Origin: Escherichia phage vB_EcoM-pEK20
Length of the DNA: 64,000 nucleotides
Reading direction: 5' to 3' (one strand)
Sequence record: MZ868638.1
Each line of letters opens with the position of its first letter. Within the stretch, counting starts at the first letter, position 1. Below, in pieces: positions 35,819 through 63,695 of the stretch. Both the position numbers and the translations under genes were made by a program. Under the pieces are notes generated by a model. The model saw only the letters and a list, made by a program, of their open reading frames with translations, was not told the DNA's origin and ran no database searches.

Positions 35819-36454
35819 ATGAAAACTACTCCTATTACTATCGCTATTGACGCAATCATAAAACAAGCTTCTTCTTTGGCCGCTATGGCCAAAGTAATTA
35901 GTCAAAACCCTGCTCGTTATAATGCTATTCTAGAAACTCTTCGACGCCCGGGACTTAGTAATTATGAAAGTCGTGTAATTATTACAGGTGTGGGTAAGAA
36001 TGCTAATATTGCAACTAAAGCTTCTGAGACATTTGCTTCACTTGGTATCCCGAGTATGTACTTGAACACCGGGCATTATTCTCACGGTGATGCAGGATTC
36101 ATTGCGCCTAATGATGTGTTGATTCATATTAGTCGTTCTGGTAAAACTGAAGAAATGATAGGCGTGGCTAAGCATCTTAAAATGATTCGTCCGAACGTCA
36201 AACAGATTCTGTTGCATTGTAACCCAGACATTCCACAAGAAAATGAAGCCCTTTTTGATTACTCTTTCTGTACAGGCATCGCAGTAGAGGTTGATGAGAA
36301 TTCTCTGGCTCCGACTATGTCCACTACATTGTTGTTAGCGCTTATCGATACGTTTGCTATCAACCTTTCGTCTGAACGTGGATTTACCTCTAATGACTTC
36401 CTTAAGTTCCACCCTGGCGGTGCACTAGGTGCCATGTTACGAGGCGAACAATGA
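35819..36454 (+). CDS. SIS-domain sugar-phosphate isomerase, KdsD/GutQ-like (D-arabinose-5-phosphate isomerase family)
   Basis: GVGKNANIATKASETFASLGIPS...HGDAGF...HISRSGKTEE...LAPTMSTT...RGFTSNDFLKFHPGGALG parallels the E. coli KdsD SIS domain motif for motif. Confidence 0.75.
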   Translation: MKTTPITIAIDAIIKQASSLAAMAKVISQNPARYNAILETLRRPGLSNYESRVIITGVGKNANIATKASETFASLGIPSMYLNTGHYSHGDAGFIAPNDVLIHISRSGKTEEMIGVAKHLKMIRPNVKQILLHCNPDIPQENEALFDYSFCTGIAVEVDENSLAPTMSTTLLLALIDTFAINLSSERGFTSNDFLKFHPGGALGAMLRGEQ

Positions 36455-36635: not shown

Positions 36636-38324
36636 ATGAAAAAAGCTGTTATTCTTGGTGCTGGACTGGCAACTCGTTTGTATCCAATAACGCATCATAT
36701 TCCTAAGGTGCTTGTTAACTATAAACAAGACACTATTCTGAGCAATTTGTATACAATTTATTCTGACCTTGGCGCAGATGAAATTATTGTAGTAGTTCAT
36801 TCAAAATTTGCTGAAACTGTTCGAGCTTATTGTGAGCAAGAAGGGTTCAATGTGACTATTCGTACAGTTGATGAAGCGTATGGTTCCGCTTATGCTCTTG
36901 CTAAATTACACAAAGATTTAGACGGCCATAATGTAATTGTTAACTGGTGTGATATTATTCCCGATTTTGGTTCATGGTCTTGGAATGTTAACGCAATCTA
37001 TGTTAAGGGCGACGAATGTCGTTATAATTTCGACGGTGAAAATATCACTAACGTAGGTTCAACAGGTGGTAATGTTGTAGGAATTTATCAGTTCAAAGAC
37101 TGGGAATTCTATATGGGTTCTACTGATGAGGAAATTCATGAATACTGCAAAGGACGTGATTTCGTAGAATTCCTTTACGGCAGCGCATTCAATAAATCAG
37201 AGCTTATGAATATCATCGACCTTGGTGATATGCCTAAACTTGAAAAAGCTCATGAAGTTCGTGAACTTAATCGTAGTTTTAATGCAGTTGAAATTGGCGA
37301 AGAAACGGTAACAAAGATTGCTTTAACAGAACAGGGCGTTGCACTTCAAAAAGATGAAGTCAATTGGTATAAGAAAGTTAAATCAGATTCAGTTCCACGG
37401 ATTGTAAGTTATCATCCTGGCGGCCACTTTATTATGGAACGCATTAAAGGTAAGCCAGCATTTGAATATATTAAATCCAAATCGAGTCTTGCTCGTCCAC
37501 AAATTGTTGATGCAATTTTAGACGCACTGAAATTCAGCACAGACACTTATTTTGTAAGTCCTGAAACTGTTCGTCGTGATTTCACTAAAGAATTCTATAC
37601 GAAAGTTATTGATCGTTGTGAAAGTATTCAACCATTGATTGATTCATTTGGTAAAATCACACATGTGAACTACACTAAGATTGGGCGTCTGAAGCCAATG
37701 CTGAAACAAGCTTTAGAACACCTTATTCGTTATCATAACCGTTCTCAGGGACAGTACTCTGTTATTCATGGTGACCCGAACTTCAGTAATACTATGATTA
37801 CTGATAATGGTGAAGTCAAGTTTATCGACCCTCGTGGATATTTTGGTGAAACCAAGATTTATGGGCCAAAATTGTATGATGAAGCTAAAGTGCTTTATGC
37901 TGTTTCAGGTTATGATGAATTCAACGCTAATCCGACCTGGGGTCAGTTTACTATTGATGAAACAACTTGTAATGTGACTATTAACATCAATCCATTAGTT
38001 TACAAATATGGAAAGATGAGTTCGTTTAATGAGTATCATCATTTGGCTGTAGCAATTATCTGGATTGCATTAGGTGGTTATTTCAAGAATAATCCACTTA
38101 AAGCGGTAGCCGCATATTATAAAGGTATGGAACTTCTGACTAAGCAATTACGTAACATGGGCCGTGTACTTCAGGACGGCACTATTAGTTATGATGTAGC
38201 AGAACCTGTAACGGCTACTCTGATTACAAAAAATCCTGGTAAATGGGTACTAACTGATAAAGAAACTGGTGTTTCTTATCGTCCAATCGGTGGCGATATC
38301 ACTCATCAATGGGAACGAATCTAA
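36636..38324 (+). CDS. Bifunctional sugar-1-phosphate nucleotidyltransferase (N-term) / APH-like sugar kinase (C-term)
   Basis: N-term KAVILGAGLATRLYPIT...PKVL is the GxGTRLxPxT nucleotidyltransferase signature; C-term IHGDPNFSNTMI plus KFIDPRGYFG is the HGDxxxxN / D-x-G catalytic pair of APH/choline-kinase-fold kinases. Confidence 0.7.
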   Translation: MKKAVILGAGLATRLYPITHHIPKVLVNYKQDTILSNLYTIYSDLGADEIIVVVHSKFAETVRAYCEQEGFNVTIRTVDEAYGSAYALAKLHKDLDGHNVIVNWCDIIPDFGSWSWNVNAIYVKGDECRYNFDGENITNVGSTGGNVVGIYQFKDWEFYMGSTDEEIHEYCKGRDFVEFLYGSAFNKSELMNIIDLGDMPKLEKAHEVRELNRSFNAVEIGEETVTKIALTEQGVALQKDEVNWYKKVKSDSVPRIVSYHPGGHFIMERIKGKPAFEYIKSKSSLARPQIVDAILDALKFSTDTYFVSPETVRRDFTKEFYTKVIDRCESIQPLIDSFGKITHVNYTKIGRLKPMLKQALEHLIRYHNRSQGQYSVIHGDPNFSNTMITDNGEVKFIDPRGYFGETKIYGPKLYDEAKVLYAVSGYDEFNANPTWGQFTIDETTCNVTININPLVYKYGKMSSFNEYHHLAVAIIWIALGGYFKNNPLKAVAAYYKGMELLTKQLRNMGRVLQDGTISYDVAEPVTATLITKNPGKWVLTDKETGVSYRPIGGDITHQWERI

Positions 38325-38710
38325 TGCACCGTGTAGAAAACATGCTTAATCTTTGTTTTGATGTCGATGATTGTATAACAGAGTGGAATAACAACCGTGA
38401 TTACGTGAACTTCAAACCAGACGTCGAAATGGTGACTGCCATTAATGCCCTGTACGATGCAGGGCATACCATAACGCTTTACACTGCTCGCGGTATGAAG
38501 TCAGTCGGTCCTGGTCGTATAGCAATTGACATTCTCCCAAGTCTGATTCAGAACTTGGCAAACATTGGATTGAAGTACCATAATTTGCTAACACATAAAC
38601 CAGTATATGATTGGATTATCGACGACAAAGCTATGCGTCCTGACGAATTCAAAGCTCTTATGAATAAAGGCGAATTCGAAACATTTAAATCGTATAAACC
38701 GAATCTATAA
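38324..38710 (+). CDS. HAD-superfamily phosphatase, KdsC-like
   Basis: FDVDDCIT (KdsC FDVDGVLT), TLYTAR, IIDDKAM (motif IV DD); start 38324 overlaps upstream stop, alternative 38309. Confidence 0.6.
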   Translation: MHRVENMLNLCFDVDDCITEWNNNRDYVNFKPDVEMVTAINALYDAGHTITLYTARGMKSVGPGRIAIDILPSLIQNLANIGLKYHNLLTHKPVYDWIIDDKAMRPDEFKALMNKGEFETFKSYKPNL

Positions 38711-38766
38711 TAATTTAAGTAAGACCTGCAAAAACCATCGCGTCAATTAACGTGAGATGCAAAAAA

Positions 38767-39927
38767 ATGAATACTTTTAAAATCGGAACGAATTTTGATT
38801 TAGCTCTTCTTGATAAAATCGTAGAGCTCAATAAAACTTATCCTAATAGCTTGATAAACGAAGTATACGGCTCTACAAGAGAAATGGCTTTTGTAGCAGC
38901 CAGACCTGATTTTAGGCTTCCTGACGTTGACAAAAAGATGTTAGAAGATTACGTTAAACGTTGTAACGAATTAGGTATTTGCTTTAACTATACACTCAAC
39001 ACGATAAATCCTGGTTCAAAAAGAGAACTAGTTGAGTGGAAGAAGAAAGCTATTCAGGATTATGTTCAGTATCTTTGGTCAATAGGCGTATGGCGTATTA
39101 CTATCGCTAACCCTGTTGTTATGGAAATTGTTCGTGAAGTCAATAAAGACATTGAGATTGAAGTTTCAACAATTCTACATGTCGATGCTGTAACTCAAAT
39201 CAAATACTTGCATGACCAGTATAATATCAAAAAGGTCTGCTGTGGAATTCATAAGAACCGTTCGGTTTCTTTCCTGAAGCGTGCAGCAGAGTTTTGCAAT
39301 AAGAACAATATAATATTTGAAGTTCTTGTAAATGAGTTCTGTTCTAATGCTGGTAAAGGGTATACAACACATTGTAGCTATCGTGACTCTTGCTATATTT
39401 TCCATAGTACTGATGTTACCGCTGATGATGCTAAATCCTTAAATGGATATCCAATGCAACACTGCATTAAAGCTCGTGATACAGATCCATTTAACTGGTT
39501 GAGAACTCGTTTTGTTCGTCCTCAAGATTTGAAACTTTATAATGATATTGGTATCACTCAATTCAAAGTTTCAGGACGTACAGGTAGCACAGACTACATT
39601 TTGAAAGTTCTTGAAGCTTATGCTTCCGAAAAATTTGAAGGTAATTTGTTGGAATTGTGGAAGCCTTTAGAGACCATTTTCACTCTTGAAAATGAGACCG
39701 AGTTTTCACATACGGTAAATATTGAAACCTCTTTGTTAGATGGCTTTTTAGAAAAAAGGTGGTTCAGACATCCAGATTTCGATTGTGCTAATGAAATCTG
39801 TGGGACGACGTGTACATATTGTGAAAGATATTATAAACGTCAATTATCTAAAAATGGGTTATCAGAAAACTCTATATCTATTATTGATATAACTAACTCT
39901 GACGACGCTTTGAGGTACCCAGAATGA
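38767..39927 (+). CDS. Cys-rich enzyme of unknown family (possible Fe-S/metal-binding)
   Basis: Central Cys cluster KVCCGIH...EFCNKNN...EFCSNAGKGYTTHCSYRDSCY and C-terminal CANEICGTTCTYCERYY; fold not assignable by eye. Confidence 0.4.
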   Translation: MNTFKIGTNFDLALLDKIVELNKTYPNSLINEVYGSTREMAFVAARPDFRLPDVDKKMLEDYVKRCNELGICFNYTLNTINPGSKRELVEWKKKAIQDYVQYLWSIGVWRITIANPVVMEIVREVNKDIEIEVSTILHVDAVTQIKYLHDQYNIKKVCCGIHKNRSVSFLKRAAEFCNKNNIIFEVLVNEFCSNAGKGYTTHCSYRDSCYIFHSTDVTADDAKSLNGYPMQHCIKARDTDPFNWLRTRFVRPQDLKLYNDIGITQFKVSGRTGSTDYILKVLEAYASEKFEGNLLELWKPLETIFTLENETEFSHTVNIETSLLDGFLEKRWFRHPDFDCANEICGTTCTYCERYYKRQLSKNGLSENSISIIDITNSDDALRYPE

Positions 39928-40206
39928 TTTCTAGAAAAACTTTTAACCACCAACTTAATGAAGAGATTTTGACTATGAAAATTAACAGCAACGAACAAAT
40001 TCTTAAAAAGGCCCTTATGGGCCTGTTTGAAACCAAAGCGGCTTAAAGTGATTAAAGAACCTGTTCAATTGTAATACTACGCTGATGCATTTCTTCATAG
40101 TGTCCTTGGAAGTATCGATGCCGAAGCTCTACGTTATATCAACATCGCTAAGAAATTCAAATAAGCTTTATGAATTGAGTATATAATAAATTGTATTGAG
40201 GTAAAC

Positions 40207-40923
40207 ATGGGAAAACATAACACAATGAAATATATTAAAGCCGCAGATTTTCAATCCGCATTTAAAGCTGTCAATCGTGAAATTTTAGAAAACCCGGAAT
40301 TCGTAACTGATTCTCGTATTGGACGTTGTAATGAAATTGGGTCTATGACAGTAGTTGTTGACACTCCATCATCATTCAAAATGACCGACCCACGTATTAA
40401 CCGCATCTCTTATGAATATGCTGAAGACTTCTGGAAGTTTATGGTTTCTGGTGGTACTGATGCAGAAGAAGCATTTAAGGCATATCCTAACGTTGCTAAA
40501 TTTATTTCTAAACCTAAATCAGACGCTTTGCCTGCAAACTTCAACACTTTCTACGGTCCACGAATTGCGGCCCAATTACCAGCTCTTTTAAAAGAACTTA
40601 AAGAGAAGCCTAACTCTCGAAGAGTTGTGTTTCAAATTCTTGAAAGTTCTGATCAGGCTTTGCTTGATTCGGACGAAACGCTTGAATATCCATGTACTGA
40701 CTCAGTGACTTATTATATTCGTGATGGTAAGCTTTATACCCACTGCCATATGCGTTCTCAGAACTGTGCTGTTGTTATGCAGTTGGATTTTTATCTCCAA
40801 GGAAAATTACTTCATTATATCGCTAACGAATGTGGTGTAGAAGTTGGTGATTATACTCATACCATGGTAAGTGCCCATGTGTTTGAACGTGATTTTGATT
40901 ATGTTAAAGGATTCCTTGACTAA
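40207..40923 (+). CDS. 42: Thymidylate-synthase-fold pyrimidine hydroxymethylase (gp42-like, divergent)
   Basis: KPNSRRVVFQIL (TS NPxSRR), YPCTDSV (nucleophile PC), MRSQNCAVVMQLD (TS RSxD...N/D specificity position is Asp); position equals T4 gene 42. Confidence 0.65.
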   Translation: MGKHNTMKYIKAADFQSAFKAVNREILENPEFVTDSRIGRCNEIGSMTVVVDTPSSFKMTDPRINRISYEYAEDFWKFMVSGGTDAEEAFKAYPNVAKFISKPKSDALPANFNTFYGPRIAAQLPALLKELKEKPNSRRVVFQILESSDQALLDSDETLEYPCTDSVTYYIRDGKLYTHCHMRSQNCAVVMQLDFYLQGKLLHYIANECGVEVGDYTHTMVSAHVFERDFDYVKGFLD

Positions 40924-41822
40924 TGGCTATTTTCCGCGTACCTATCTTGAGTATGCGGTCTTATGAAACTGGACAGTATGCTATCCTTAAGGATGGCAAC
41001 TTCCAACTTCATTTGCACCGTGCTAATCCAGGTGATGTGATTACATATCCACGTAATGCATCTGATATTAAAGAATGTGAACGTCTTTTCCCAGAATTTA
41101 AGTTTGTTCCATTATGGTATAAAGATAACGCGTATAACACTCGTAAATATTTCTGGTCTGAAAATGAATTTGTGGTTGATTCATTAATTGCTTATTATGA
41201 TTGTGATTTTCTAATAACAGATATCACTGGATATGATGGTGCTTTTGATGTAGAATTCAATTTCAATATCACCGCAGACCCTAATAAACCGCGTTTTTAT
41301 ATTGACGAATTCTTAAAAACCGACATGTTGTCGGTTAATCGTTCACTTCAAACTACTGTGTTGAATGAACGTCAAAAGGAAGTGCTGGTTAACGCTGGTG
41401 CGGATGGTAATAAGATTATCGTAACGCAGAAAGTTATACGTCCTTCCATCATGCAGCGTCTTGTAGGTGATTTGGCTCCTATTCATCTAGATGGTATTTT
41501 TCATCCATTTCGAATTAGTGACCCGTGCTATCGTTTTGAACAAGTGGTTGAATGTGCAATTCAATTAGGCCAACCGCTTTATATAACCGATCCAAATAAT
41601 AGCTTCGACAGAAATAAGTATCCTGAAGAAGCGCTGATTCGAATTTTTAAACCAACTAAAACCGAGTACTATCAAATTCTTAAAGGACGTCCAAAGATTC
41701 AATATTTCGAAAATCCTGAAGAAGTATTCCATCCAGGTCTTGGTGAGTTCATCTACTTTAATGCTTTAATTTCTTCGCCGTATAATATACCTAAATACGA
41801 AGATGTCGTAATCGAGGAATAA
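40923..41822 (+). CDS. Hypothetical protein at the T4 beta-gt position
   Basis: 299 aa; no motif I can assign. Confidence 0.35.
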   Translation: MAIFRVPILSMRSYETGQYAILKDGNFQLHLHRANPGDVITYPRNASDIKECERLFPEFKFVPLWYKDNAYNTRKYFWSENEFVVDSLIAYYDCDFLITDITGYDGAFDVEFNFNITADPNKPRFYIDEFLKTDMLSVNRSLQTTVLNERQKEVLVNAGADGNKIIVTQKVIRPSIMQRLVGDLAPIHLDGIFHPFRISDPCYRFEQVVECAIQLGQPLYITDPNNSFDRNKYPEEALIRIFKPTKTEYYQILKGRPKIQYFENPEEVFHPGLGEFIYFNALISSPYNIPKYEDVVIEE

Positions 41823-41823
41823 A

Positions 41824-42372
41824 ATGGCTAAAATTATTTTAGTAGATGGCCCGGATAATGCTGGTAAAACAACTTTCATTAATGACATAATGGAAATTAG
41901 TGAAAGATATGTAAAGATTGATTTCCCTAAACGAACGGTTGATGGACGTTTCGATGTTAAGTCTCGAAATGAAGTTGGCTGTTTCGAAACGATGCTGAAT
42001 TATTTAGACCCTACTAAGATTTATCTGTTAGATCGTGGATATATTAGTAACTGGGTTTACGGACGTATTCGACAAGATGCGGACTCGGTTCTTGACGTTT
42101 ATGAACAGGATTATGTTCGTCTTTGCCAAAACCATGATGTGTTCACAATTATTTTAACACGTAACGAAATGACTGAAAGTTTTGAAGACGACCTTATTAC
42201 TTTGTCTTCATTCGGTTTTAATACAGTAATTTCATATTTTGAAGAGTTTGCAATCCATAACGAAATCCAAACGTATCAATTACTTAATCATGATGGTGCT
42301 AACAAAGTTATAGGATTTAATGCAAGCGAACGTAATAATTTGATTACAGAAATTATCAAATGGGCTCGTTAA
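41824..42372 (+). CDS. Tmk-like P-loop nucleoside monophosphate kinase
   Basis: IILVDGPDNAGKTT Walker A and LLDRGYISNWVYG resemble thymidylate kinase DRY motif region. Confidence 0.45.
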   Translation: MAKIILVDGPDNAGKTTFINDIMEISERYVKIDFPKRTVDGRFDVKSRNEVGCFETMLNYLDPTKIYLLDRGYISNWVYGRIRQDADSVLDVYEQDYVRLCQNHDVFTIILTRNEMTESFEDDLITLSSFGFNTVISYFEEFAIHNEIQTYQLLNHDGANKVIGFNASERNNLITEIIKWAR

Positions 42373-62594: not shown

Positions 62595-63695
62595 ATGAAA
62601 GTTATGTTTATCCCATCTCGTGCAGTCCCATTTAATCCTGACCGTGTACAAGGTGGTCTTGAAGCAGTACATTTAAATGTGTTGAAATATCTTGTGTCCA
62701 TCGGTGCTGATATTGATTATATCGGCTTTGATAATGACACGTTTGGTGACTGGAAAGTTACACACCATCCTGTTGGTCATCTGACTAAATTTAGTCTAGG
62801 TATGAGTTATACTATGGCTCGTAAGATTGTTGAACTAGCCGGCATCCATGAATACGATTTTGTTGTTACTATGGAACCGACTAAACTAACCGTTCAGGCA
62901 ATTAAAGACGCAGGTCTCTCTAAAGTTCATAAGAATTTTATGGCAACACCATTTGAACCGGTATCTCGTGGCATTGTTCAAATTTGGGACCAGACTATTC
63001 AAATTCATAAGAATGGTGGTAAGAGTTATGCTCCTACTAAAGCCTTCCGTGAATTTGAACGCAAATATTGTTATATGACTTCAGGTCTGACTGACAAAAT
63101 TGATTATGATTATTGGCGAGCAAATCCGTTGTTTGAAGCCGAAGATTATCCGGTTATTTGTTTGAATGAGAAACCTGAAGTTCTTCCGGCGACTGATCTG
63201 ATTATTAGTGCACAACGTTATGACACTAAAATGCGTCGTACTGATGTTGCTCTTGAAGCGATTAAAGCACTAGGCGAAAATGGTGTAGGATACTGTCCAA
63301 GCAAATGGGCACCACCAGCTAAATATCCTGTTATTATTGATGCTCCACACAGTGAAATCATGGAACGTCTTAAAACAGCTAAAGCGCTTATTAATACGTG
63401 TCCTGACACAGGTACGGTAGAGAATAGTTCTATTGAAGCCATCTCTAAAGGTGTCCCTGTAATCCAGTTAGTTTTTAAGGATTATCCTCATGCGACATTC
63501 GAATACGACCCAGATACTGTGCGTGTAGAAATTGATTCCTCTACTCCTAAGAAAGAAGTAGTTGCGCTTTACACAAAAGCTGTATTAGAATTCACTGACA
63601 CATACGAAGCTCGAGTTAAACGTGCTGAAGCAGTATGGAAGAAGTATAACCGAGATGCAGTTGTTGCGATGTGGGATAAAATCTTCACAGCGTAA
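62595..63695 (+). CDS. GT-B fold glycosyltransferase (candidate hydroxymethyl-cytosine sugar transferase)
   Basis: N-terminal Rossmann-like beta-strand/Gly loop and E-x7-E-like region SIEAISKGVPVI; sits between gene 39 and rIIA.1. Confidence 0.55.
   Translation: MKVMFIPSRAVPFNPDRVQGGLEAVHLNVLKYLVSIGADIDYIGFDNDTFGDWKVTHHPVGHLTKFSLGMSYTMARKIVELAGIHEYDFVVTMEPTKLTVQAIKDAGLSKVHKNFMATPFEPVSRGIVQIWDQTIQIHKNGGKSYAPTKAFREFERKYCYMTSGLTDKIDYDYWRANPLFEAEDYPVICLNEKPEVLPATDLIISAQRYDTKMRRTDVALEAIKALGENGVGYCPSKWAPPAKYPVIIDAPHSEIMERLKTAKALINTCPDTGTVENSSIEAISKGVPVIQLVFKDYPHATFEYDPDTVRVEIDSSTPKKEVVALYTKAVLEFTDTYEARVKRAEAVWKKYNRDAVVAMWDKIFTA

Follow-up and report, generated by a model that had tools for sequence, protein, structure and literature searches.

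The DNA analysed here is a 64,000-nucleotide stretch of Escherichia phage vB_EcoM-pEK20 (MZ868638.1), hereafter the window, which is a Mosigvirus (RB69-like) genome. We examined a 299-amino-acid (aa) open reading frame (ORF) on its + strand whose product has a predicted GT-B fold. The results indicate that this protein is very probably the primary glycosyltransferase (GT) of 5-hydroxycytosine (5hoC), at whichever acceptor level it acts. The narrower assignment, as predicted primary (base-proximal, alpha-linked) arabinofuranosyltransferase of the RB69-like arabinosyl-5hoC pathway, we regard as probable, and a primary 5hoC transferase acting on DNA is the form of it that we favour with some reserve.

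The gene has already been named as a candidate first arabinosyltransferase in the 2025-2026 literature and is not novel in that respect. What is new here is a hydroxylase-GT-kinase gene trio, a set of GT-kinase and HAD-GT fusion proteins, and loci in which a U32-family gene is found in place of ThyA.

Position and conservation of the 299-aa gene

The ORF extends from the ATG at 40923 to the TAA at 41820-41822. An initial annotation of the window had noted that its start overlaps the upstream stop and that it lies upstream of a Tmk-like kinase gene, and both statements hold: its ATG overlaps the TAA of the ThyA-family gene before it (40207..40923) by 1 nucleotide (nt), as in gacTAATGgct, and a single base separates the ORF stop from the kinase start at 41824. 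The annotation had also placed the ORF in the position of the beta-glucosyltransferase gene (beta-gt). The T4 gene order, 43-imm.1-imm-42-b-gt-segA-uvsX-40-41, confirms this: like beta-gt, the ORF comes after the gene-42 homolog and before uvsX.

The ORF is conserved at 95-99% DNA identity over 153 phage records, and tblastn with the 299-aa protein finds matches in 348 phage records. In one record the DNA is 97.9% identical while the protein is 100% identical, so that all of the ~19 differences are synonymous. These synonymous-only substitutions reflect purifying selection on the ORF, and we count them for its role as primary GT. The protein matches PHROG 3891 ('unknown function') with E 3.4e-156 over residues 1-298, and the 299-aa ORF is far more than a chance ORF. 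The family has only 230 relatives among 1.84 billion protein representatives in an exhaustive profile search. Between 35000 and 43800, a promoter scan found 26 candidates against 30 expected from shuffled sequence and a terminator scan found 5 against 5.1; since these counts are at the shuffled level, they say nothing on the transcription unit.

Several GenBank orthologs of the ORF (e.g. MH051917, OP617331, NC_018855 and MZ571829) are annotated as 'RNA polymerase binding protein', a label that has no support from sequence or fold and looks like a propagated mis-annotation.

Predicted fold and family membership

An AlphaFold2 (AF2) model of the ORF product was built on a 60-sequence alignment, with a predicted local distance difference test score (pLDDT) of 95.1 and a predicted template-modelling score (pTM) of 0.89. 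The model contains two Rossmann-like beta/alpha/beta domains, an inter-domain cleft and a C-terminal helix that returns to the N-terminal domain, as in GT-B enzymes. The best Foldseek match is the retaining GT4 enzyme MshA (3c4q), which independently reproduces Table 1 of PMC13326640, and the next matches are UDP-GlcNAc (uridine diphosphate N-acetylglucosamine) 2-epimerases with lower template-modelling (TM) scores. Other structural neighbours are sucrose-phosphate synthase (SPS; 6kih, score 17.4), BshA (16.6), PimA (15.7), the phage HY126 glycosyltransferase (9iqz, 14.3) and the T4 alpha-glucosyltransferase (alpha-gt; 1y6f, 13.1). In a viral structure library, both fragments of the RB69 protein fit their own half of the model with TM 0.98 each. 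As modelled, the ORF product is a compact GT-B-fold protein closest to GT4, and ~30 invariant polar residues cluster where GT-B enzymes usually have their donor and acceptor sites. The initial annotation had held that a predicted structure with no GT fold would speak against a transferase; structure prediction with Foldseek found a GT-B fold.

The same annotation could name no motif in the protein, and our searches agree. Pfam gives no hit for the ORF or its 60 relatives, with no GT family even at E <= 1, the NCBIfam search of the ORF gives no match, and the PDB gives no match by sequence and none below E 0.7 by profile. The hhalign probabilities of the ORF family against T4 alpha-gt, T4 beta-gt and a gp3-type GT encoded elsewhere in the window are 0.1-0.2%. 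From these values and the empty family searches, homology to known GT families is not claimable from sequence, and because no GT family matches, the active-site assignment derives from fold and conservation only.

Several family assignments were rejected. The protein has no profile match to GT4 (Pfam Glycos_transf_1), neither sequence nor close structural homology to GT63 (T4 beta-gt), and no sequence homology to GT72 (T4 alpha-gt). Nor is it a GT-A-like NTP_transferase: it has no such signature, its fold is GT-B, and that domain sits in the neighbouring gene 36636..38324. We also dropped charge as an indicator of whether the acceptor is DNA or a small molecule, since T4 alpha-gt, a proven DNA enzyme, has an isoelectric point (pI) of 6.1; the median pI of the ORF family is 5.2 (acidic) and that of T4 beta-gt 9.05 (basic).

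In the T4-like Serratia phages Muldoon (NC_049464 23173-24135) and PS2 (NC_024121 24150-24683), the same genomic region encodes a very divergent relative, 18-24% identical to the ORF product; Foldseek comparison of the ORF model with the Muldoon protein gives TM 0.75. This relative may be a transferase of different specificity.

The upstream hydroxylase and the modified base

The initial annotation had called the upstream gene a hydroxymethylase. The gene is homologous to deoxycytidine monophosphate (dCMP) hydroxymethylase, yet its product is 99% identical to RB69 gp48 and carries MRSQN where T4 gp42 has MRSND. Experiments have established RB69 gp48, a ThyA homolog, as a flavin- and O2-dependent 5-hydroxy-dCMP (5hodCMP) synthase, and D169N, an N at the position of E. 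coli D169, is diagnostic of these synthases (PMC13326640). The MRS(Q/E)N motif is common to the upstream protein, DLP3 gp80, Thanatos TH1_062 and RL38J1_216. The ORF thus adjoins a ThyA homolog of the 5-hydroxy-dCMP-synthase type, and since the upstream enzyme is gp48-type with MRSQN, the acceptor hydroxyl is the ring 5-OH and not a hydroxymethyl. It follows that the modified base is O5-arabinosyl-5-hydroxycytosine and not glycosylated hydroxymethylcytosine (hmC). The annotation's glycosylated hmC therefore has to be replaced, the base being 5-hydroxycytosine and the sugar not glucose but D-arabinofuranose, supplied via the adjacent SIS, NTP-transferase-kinase and HAD genes.

This is in line with the published chemistry. 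RB69 DNA carries beta-D-Araf-(1->3)-alpha-D-Araf (Araf, arabinofuranose) ether-linked to 5-hydroxycytosine, not arabinosyl-hydroxymethylcytosine as first thought (PMC13326640), and RB69-type DNA contains both mono- and di-arabinosyl 5hoC (PMC13326640, PMC13390438). Virion DNA with O5-glycosylated 5hoC is known from the literature for RB69, Mosigvirus NP, DLP3, Thanatos and RL38J1. RB69 gp159, a gp1-type deoxynucleoside monophosphate (dNMP) kinase, phosphorylates 5hodCMP, and when gp48 and gp159 are expressed 5-hydroxydeoxycytidine (5hodC) enters DNA (PMC13326640).

A Flavodoxin_2 gene (NAD(P)H:flavin oxidoreductase-like) lies directly upstream of the ThyA homolog in a contig of 122 kilobases (kb; L005 6739-7293) and ~5.8 kb upstream of it in a 355-kb jumbo-phage contig (L004 1-523); its product is a plausible flavin-reducing partner of the 5-hydroxy-dCMP synthase.

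The hydroxylase-GT-kinase trio and fusion proteins

We assembled 59 loci from annotated phages, IMG/VR and metagenomes and used the 50 with adequate flanks for counts; many of these are close relatives, and the counts overstate independence. A ThyA homolog ends <=20 nt upstream of the GT gene in 42/50 loci, overlapping or abutting it in 32 of those 42. The Tmk-like kinase gene is present anywhere in the locus in 48/50 and stands directly downstream of the GT in 34/50. Twelve of the 50 contain the trio only, SIS, nucleotidyltransferase and HAD genes all being absent over 6 kb, and as these loci are without sugar-activation genes, the GT is tied to the base and not to arabinose synthesis.

The trio occurs in four unrelated backgrounds: Straboviridae, Pootjesviridae RL38J1, the 355-kb jumbo-phage contig and the 122-kb contig. 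In RL38J1, whose DNA carries hexosylated 5hoC according to the literature, it consists of genes 216/215/214 with a 4-nt overlap. Against the family profile RL38J1_215 reaches 81 bits, and it retains R12, S13, D24, N26, R74, D128, N148, Q151, R197, D200, Y203, T222, N225, K246, H270, G272 and E275. Since the protein of a hexose phage keeps the core residues, the conserved core is independent of the sugar transferred, which would fit residues that bind UDP and 5-hydroxycytosine.

In an environmental phage clade (L035-L048, e.g. L040 5303-7576), the GT has ~347 aa, is 38% identical to the ORF product and belongs to a bare trio, the 6 kb around it holding no sugar-activation genes; presumably these phages draw on a nucleotide sugar of the host.

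The association with the kinase extends to gene fusion. Among the 230 relatives there are GT-kinase fusions with the kinase domain C-terminal to the GT and, in one case, N-terminal. Full-length fusions of this kind form ~20 protein clusters, one of them with 230 member sequences, occur on phage contigs of up to 93 kb, and adjoin SIS, nucleotidyltransferase-kinase and U32 genes. The fused kinase domain aligns with the Tmk-like family of the window (hhalign 97.4%, E 1.4e-11, 169 columns) and gives weak Pfam Thymidylate_kin matches. In a further group (P0140, P0148, P0151, P0166, P0167, P0199 and P0221), a HAD-type domain with DxDG...GDD motifs and a weak Pfam Hydrolase match lies N-terminal to the GT, and one HAD-GT fusion (L054 5452-7107) stands between a ThyA homolog and SIS and nucleotidyltransferase genes. 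Through these fusions the GT is physically linked to both the nucleotide branch and the sugar branch of the pathway. Assignment of the fused domain to the subfamily of the HAD phosphatase in the window was rejected (hhalign 0.5%), and we call it only a HAD-type domain.

First or second transferase

The initial annotation had proposed a second transferase or an accessory of the modification pathway. An accessory GT is indeed encoded in the window, at 62595..63695, and it is a different protein. Its product is 99% identical to the 'phage HY126 glycosyltransferase (with UDP)' (PDB 9iqz/9ir0), so the solved structure is that of the other enzyme and not of the 299-aa family, for which PDB sequence and profile searches found no solved member. 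This gp3-type GT (RB69 ORF003c) has no Pfam and no NCBIfam match, and its profile similarity to the 299-aa GT is nil (hhalign 0.1%). It is found in 211 phage records, all of them Mosigvirus or Acinetobacter phages plus one Tegunavirus. On the other hand, the 348 records of the 299-aa family include Klebsiella, Serratia, Enterobacter, Proteus, Yersinia, Edwardsiella, Pectobacterium and Shewanella phages, and with a divergent query the family is also found in Rhizobium phages.

Arabinosylated or pentosylated 5hoC is present in the DNA of phages LC53, 92A1 and Thanatos (PMC13326640, PMC12838424), that of Thanatos being mono-arabinosylated (PMC13326640). All three carry the 299-aa family and a gp3-type match is absent in each; TH1_065, the other large neighbour in Thanatos, resembles U32 proteins and is no GT. 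Every arabinosyl-5hoC phage type that we examined has a member of the 299-aa family, and the gp3 type is found only in phages whose DNA carries two or three sugars. As the 299-aa GT is universal and the gp3 type restricted, the ORF fits the primary, base-proximal role and the gp3-type GT is an add-on.

We therefore consider it very unlikely that the ORF encodes a second, extension transferase that acts on an already glycosylated base. Mono- and di-arabinosyl 5hoC does require two transfers, and the crystallised HY126 glycosyltransferase, being the other GT, could be the main enzyme; but the 299-aa family is the only one of the two GT types in Thanatos, LC53 and 92A1, it is tied to the hydroxylase gene even where no other GT is nearby, and the gp3 type goes with two or three sugars. 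Of the annotation's proposal, the GT-B fold, the beta-gt slot and the DNA-modification pathway stand, and the base, the sugar and the order of transfer do not.

A deletion of 'Aat', a name that may denote either GT, is viable in phage Bas46.

Proposed mechanism

The pathway would start with the ThyA homolog, which would make 5-hydroxy-dCMP as shown for the 99% identical RB69 gp48. Kinases would convert this product to the triphosphate and the polymerase would place 5hoC in DNA for C, a step partly shown with gp48 and gp159. The SIS isomerase, the kinase/uridylyltransferase and the HAD phosphatase would lead from ribulose-5-phosphate to UDP-D-arabinofuranose, as shown for the HY126 homologs in the account given by PMC13326640. 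The C-terminal domain of the ORF product would then bind UDP-Araf, for which conservation and topology suggest R197, K246, H270-P-G272 and E/D275 as candidate ligands; in the AF2 model R197 follows the first strand of this domain. The N-terminal domain would bind 5hoC through R12, S13, K23, D24, N26, R33, R74, D128, N148 and Q151, and the arabinofuranose would be placed on the 5-OH to give the alpha-linked, base-proximal sugar, to which the gp3-type GT would add the second, beta-1,3-linked arabinose. With UDP-alpha-D-Araf as donor, formation of an alpha product would mean a retaining mechanism, as in the GT4 neighbours.

The weakest step is the acceptor, which we take by the precedent of the T4 glucosyltransferases to be 5hoC in DNA, flipped out. 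To our knowledge, all characterised phage DNA glycosylation is post-replicative (T-even alpha/beta-GT). The extension GTs of DLP3 act on DNA (PMC13326640). This precedent, the incorporation of 5hodC and the DNA-level extension GTs lead us to lean towards a DNA-level acceptor.

Weighing of the evidence

A number of results weigh against the ORF product as primary arabinosyltransferase on DNA. No activity was demonstrated in PMC13326640 for the RB69 protein (gp46:47) or its DLP3 ortholog gp79: purified gp79 with UDP-Araf or UDP-arabinopyranose (UDP-Arap) gave no arabinosylation of 5hoC-DNA ('data not shown'), and the individual DLP3 GTs were inactive on 5hoC-DNA with either donor (PMC13326640). 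The Thanatos ortholog TH1_063, together with UDP-xylose, left DNA, dCMP, dCTP (deoxycytidine triphosphate) and cytosine unmodified (PMC12838424); that experiment used the wrong donor and the wrong acceptors for the arabinosyl-5hoC pathway. The same protein has been reported as a UDP-xylose pyrophosphorylase, with product formed from UTP (uridine triphosphate) and xylose-1-phosphate (PMC12838424). In the literature consulted we found glycosyl transfer for no family member, and Pfam, NCBIfam, PDB and hhalign give no GT-family membership by sequence.

The inactivity of gp79 on 5hoC-DNA would be explained if the GT arabinosylated free 5-hydroxy-dCMP, the Tmk-like kinase phosphorylated the product and the polymerase incorporated it, with only the second arabinose added on DNA. 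We consider this scheme unlikely, though the best placed of the alternatives, and the authors of PMC13326640 could not distinguish mononucleotide from DNA as acceptor of the first arabinose. It agrees with the constant presence of the Tmk-like kinase (48/50 loci, directly downstream in 34) and with its fusion to the GT in both orders across ~20 clusters. A gp1-type dNMP kinase is also encoded by RB69 (gp159) and RL38J1 (RL38J1_219), and because gp159 already phosphorylates 5hodCMP, the Tmk-like kinase looks redundant unless its substrate differs; a general dNMP kinase may not accept arabinosylated dCMP. Many of the closest structural neighbours (SPS, MshA, TPS, GlgM) use small phosphorylated acceptors. 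Endo III/Nei excise 5-hydroxycytosine from DNA, where it is a mutagenic lesion, so that a phage would gain from avoiding naked 5hoC in its DNA. The post-replicative character of known phage DNA glycosylation, the entry of 5hodC into DNA with gp48 and gp159 and the DNA-level action of the DLP3 extension GTs all stand against it, however. Moreover, gene fusion indicates a shared pathway and not consecutive steps, and the linkage is accounted for just as well by a module-specific 5hodCMP kinase that travels along. The GT-kinase fusion persists even at loci with a U32-type protein in place of ThyA; known relatives of that protein work on RNA polymers, and the observation favours neither acceptor.

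The failure of single enzymes could also mean that the ORF product is not itself catalytic or depends on an obligate partner, as a GT-B-like subunit that switches on or directs another transferase in the manner of two-protein GT systems. The DLP3 GTs were inactive singly and addition of the third arabinose depended on gp76 and gp77 acting jointly (PMC13326640), but the ~30 invariant polar residues at GT-B sites, among them R197, K246, HPG270-272 and E/D275, and the occurrence of the family in Thanatos and many trio-only loci with no second GT nearby make such a role highly improbable. We give slightly less credence still to a sugar-nucleotide-forming role as UDP-pentose pyrophosphorylase, the activity published for TH1_063. 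In its favour, this 47.5%-identical syntenic ortholog yielded UDP-xylose from UTP and xylose-1-phosphate by liquid chromatography-tandem mass spectrometry (LC-MS/MS), absent in the no-enzyme control (PMC12838424). The fold, however, is GT-B with no NTP_transferase signature, and the cluster has a dedicated nucleotidyltransferase (36636..38324), whose HY126 homolog is active as UDP-arabinose pyrophosphorylase as related in PMC13326640. The 12 trio-only loci also keep the ORF family without sugar-activation genes. As the control was a no-enzyme control only, a co-purified E. coli uridylyltransferase may account for the product, or a reverse, phosphorylase-like side reaction of a UDP-pentose-binding GT-B protein. 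We therefore retain the ORF product as a probable primary 5hoC glycosyltransferase.

Arabinosyl-5-hydroxycytosine is a recently recognised, widespread phage DNA hypermodification, and the cited literature credits it with blocking type II restriction, type I CRISPR-Cas and the Brig1 glycosylase. The enzyme for the first sugar is its committing step and the only core step without biochemical proof. Enzyme and acceptor matter for engineering therapeutic Mosigvirus, Klebsiella and Acinetobacter phages, for making defined modified DNA in vitro and for reading phage resistance to bacterial defence systems. The trio, the fusions and the evidence for a universal primary GT sharpen the question of DNA versus nucleotide as acceptor; if the nucleotide-level scheme were true, this would be the first natural pathway that builds a sugar-bearing nucleotide in the pool and then incorporates it directly.

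Neighbouring genes

The coordinates of the pathway genes are collected in Table 1. The HAD phosphatase may have its true start at ATG 38324. The equivalent of RB69 ORF049c (79 aa), at 39924..40186 (+) in the window, appears split into a 40-aa ORF (39924..40046) and a 33-aa ORF in another frame (40085..40186), which may reflect either a genuine frameshift or an error in the sequence.

Conserved Cys number 10 in the U32 family to which RB69 gp50 belongs, and some of them form a CX4CX3CX2C cluster near the C-terminus. Among U32 proteins are the O2-independent hydroxylases RlhA (ho5C in 23S rRNA), TrhP (ho5U in tRNA) and UbiU/V. In six loci from >=2 unrelated phage lineages, a U32 gene (E 1e-141 to 1e-185) accompanies GT and kinase with no ThyA in the 6-7 kb flanks, although ThyA could sit elsewhere in the genome; at other loci ThyA occurs without U32, and the two are found together in RB69 and Thanatos. 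The gp50-type protein, labelled only 'sugar or heterocycle reductase' in PMC13326640, may be an alternative cytosine-5 hydroxylase. The ThyA-type 5-hydroxy-dCMP synthase needs O2 (PMC13326640).

Table 1 Pathway genes in the window and U32 homologs at loci lacking ThyA.
Feature	Position	Strand	Evidence
SIS-domain arabinose-5-phosphate isomerase (RB69 gp55), first donor-pathway step	35819..36454	+	Pfam SIS; PHROG 5670 E 4e-116; PMC13326640
Sugar-1-phosphate nucleotidyltransferase (N-terminal) and APH-like kinase (C-terminal), RB69 gp52:53, AfhE type, UDP-arabinofuranose	36636..38324	+	Pfam NTP_transferase, APH; NCBIfam sugar-1-P nucleotidylyltransferases; HY126 homolog with UDP-arabinose pyrophosphorylase activity, via PMC13326640
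HAD-type phosphatase (RB69 gp51, AfhF type), Araf-1,5-P2 to Araf-1-P	38309..38710	+	PHROG 1238; NCBIfam capsule biosynthesis phosphatase E 4.6e-13; PMC13326640
U32-family protein (RB69 gp50)	38752..39927	+	Pfam Peptidase_U32 E 7.5e-11; weak NCBIfam UbiU match
ThyA-family 5-hydroxy-dCMP synthase (RB69 gp48 ortholog), makes the 5-OH acceptor	40207..40923	+	Pfam Thymidylat_synt E 2.4e-15
299-aa protein of predicted GT-B fold (RB69 gp46:47; PHROG 3891)	40923..41822	+	Orthologs DLP3 gp79, Thanatos TH1_063
Tmk-like P-loop nucleotide kinase, 182 aa (RB69 gp45)	41824..42372	+	PHROG 761 thymidylate kinase E 5e-45
Second, gp3-type GT-B glycosyltransferase (RB69 ORF003c), predicted for the second beta-1,3-arabinose	62595..63695	+	99% to PDB 9iqz/9ir0; PMC13326640, PMC6024577
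U32 homologs at ThyA-less loci	L055 6954-8051; L056 5783-6865; L059 6885-7973; L063 6066-7157; L064 9179-10276; L065 10053-11153		

Comparison with known systems

Compared with the retaining GT4 enzymes (MshA, sucrose-phosphate synthase, BshA and PimA), the ORF family has no Glycos_transf_1 or Glyco_transf_4 match (0/60), has no GRxxxxKG motif and is 40-100 residues shorter. The first E of their E-x7-E motif is not conserved: the ORF has E267-x7-E275, where position 275 is E in 52/60 and D in 8/60 and position 267 is mostly K or T, the equivalence being drawn from secondary-structure order only. The gp3-type GT (RB69 ORF003c; HY126) differs from the ORF product in its length of 366 aa versus 299 aa, in its location away from the hydroxylase gene and in its restricted range. 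In 2018, ORF003c alone had been proposed as the transferase of RB69 (PMC6024577), and both Mosigvirus transferases were still termed 'putative' in June 2026 (PMC13390438).

The closest known system is RB69 itself. In the RB69 reference the gene is split in two by a 1-nt frameshift, whereas the ORF is intact in the pEK20 window: the RB69 match spans 901 nt versus 900 nt in the window, and tblastn returns it in two pieces. The split into ORF047c and ORF046c has been attributed to a sequencing error, and the product, treated as the single protein 'gp46:47', predicted to be 'arabinosyltransferase 1' (Lee et al., NAR 2026, PMC13326640). DLP3 gp79 (46% identical) and Thanatos TH1_063 (47.5%, syntenic) are orthologs of the ORF product, while RB69 gp46:47 is the same protein, the ORF product being 99% identical to ORF047c+046c, and its family shares with the ORF the gene position, the predicted GT-B fold and the top structural matches (3c4q and 6kih).

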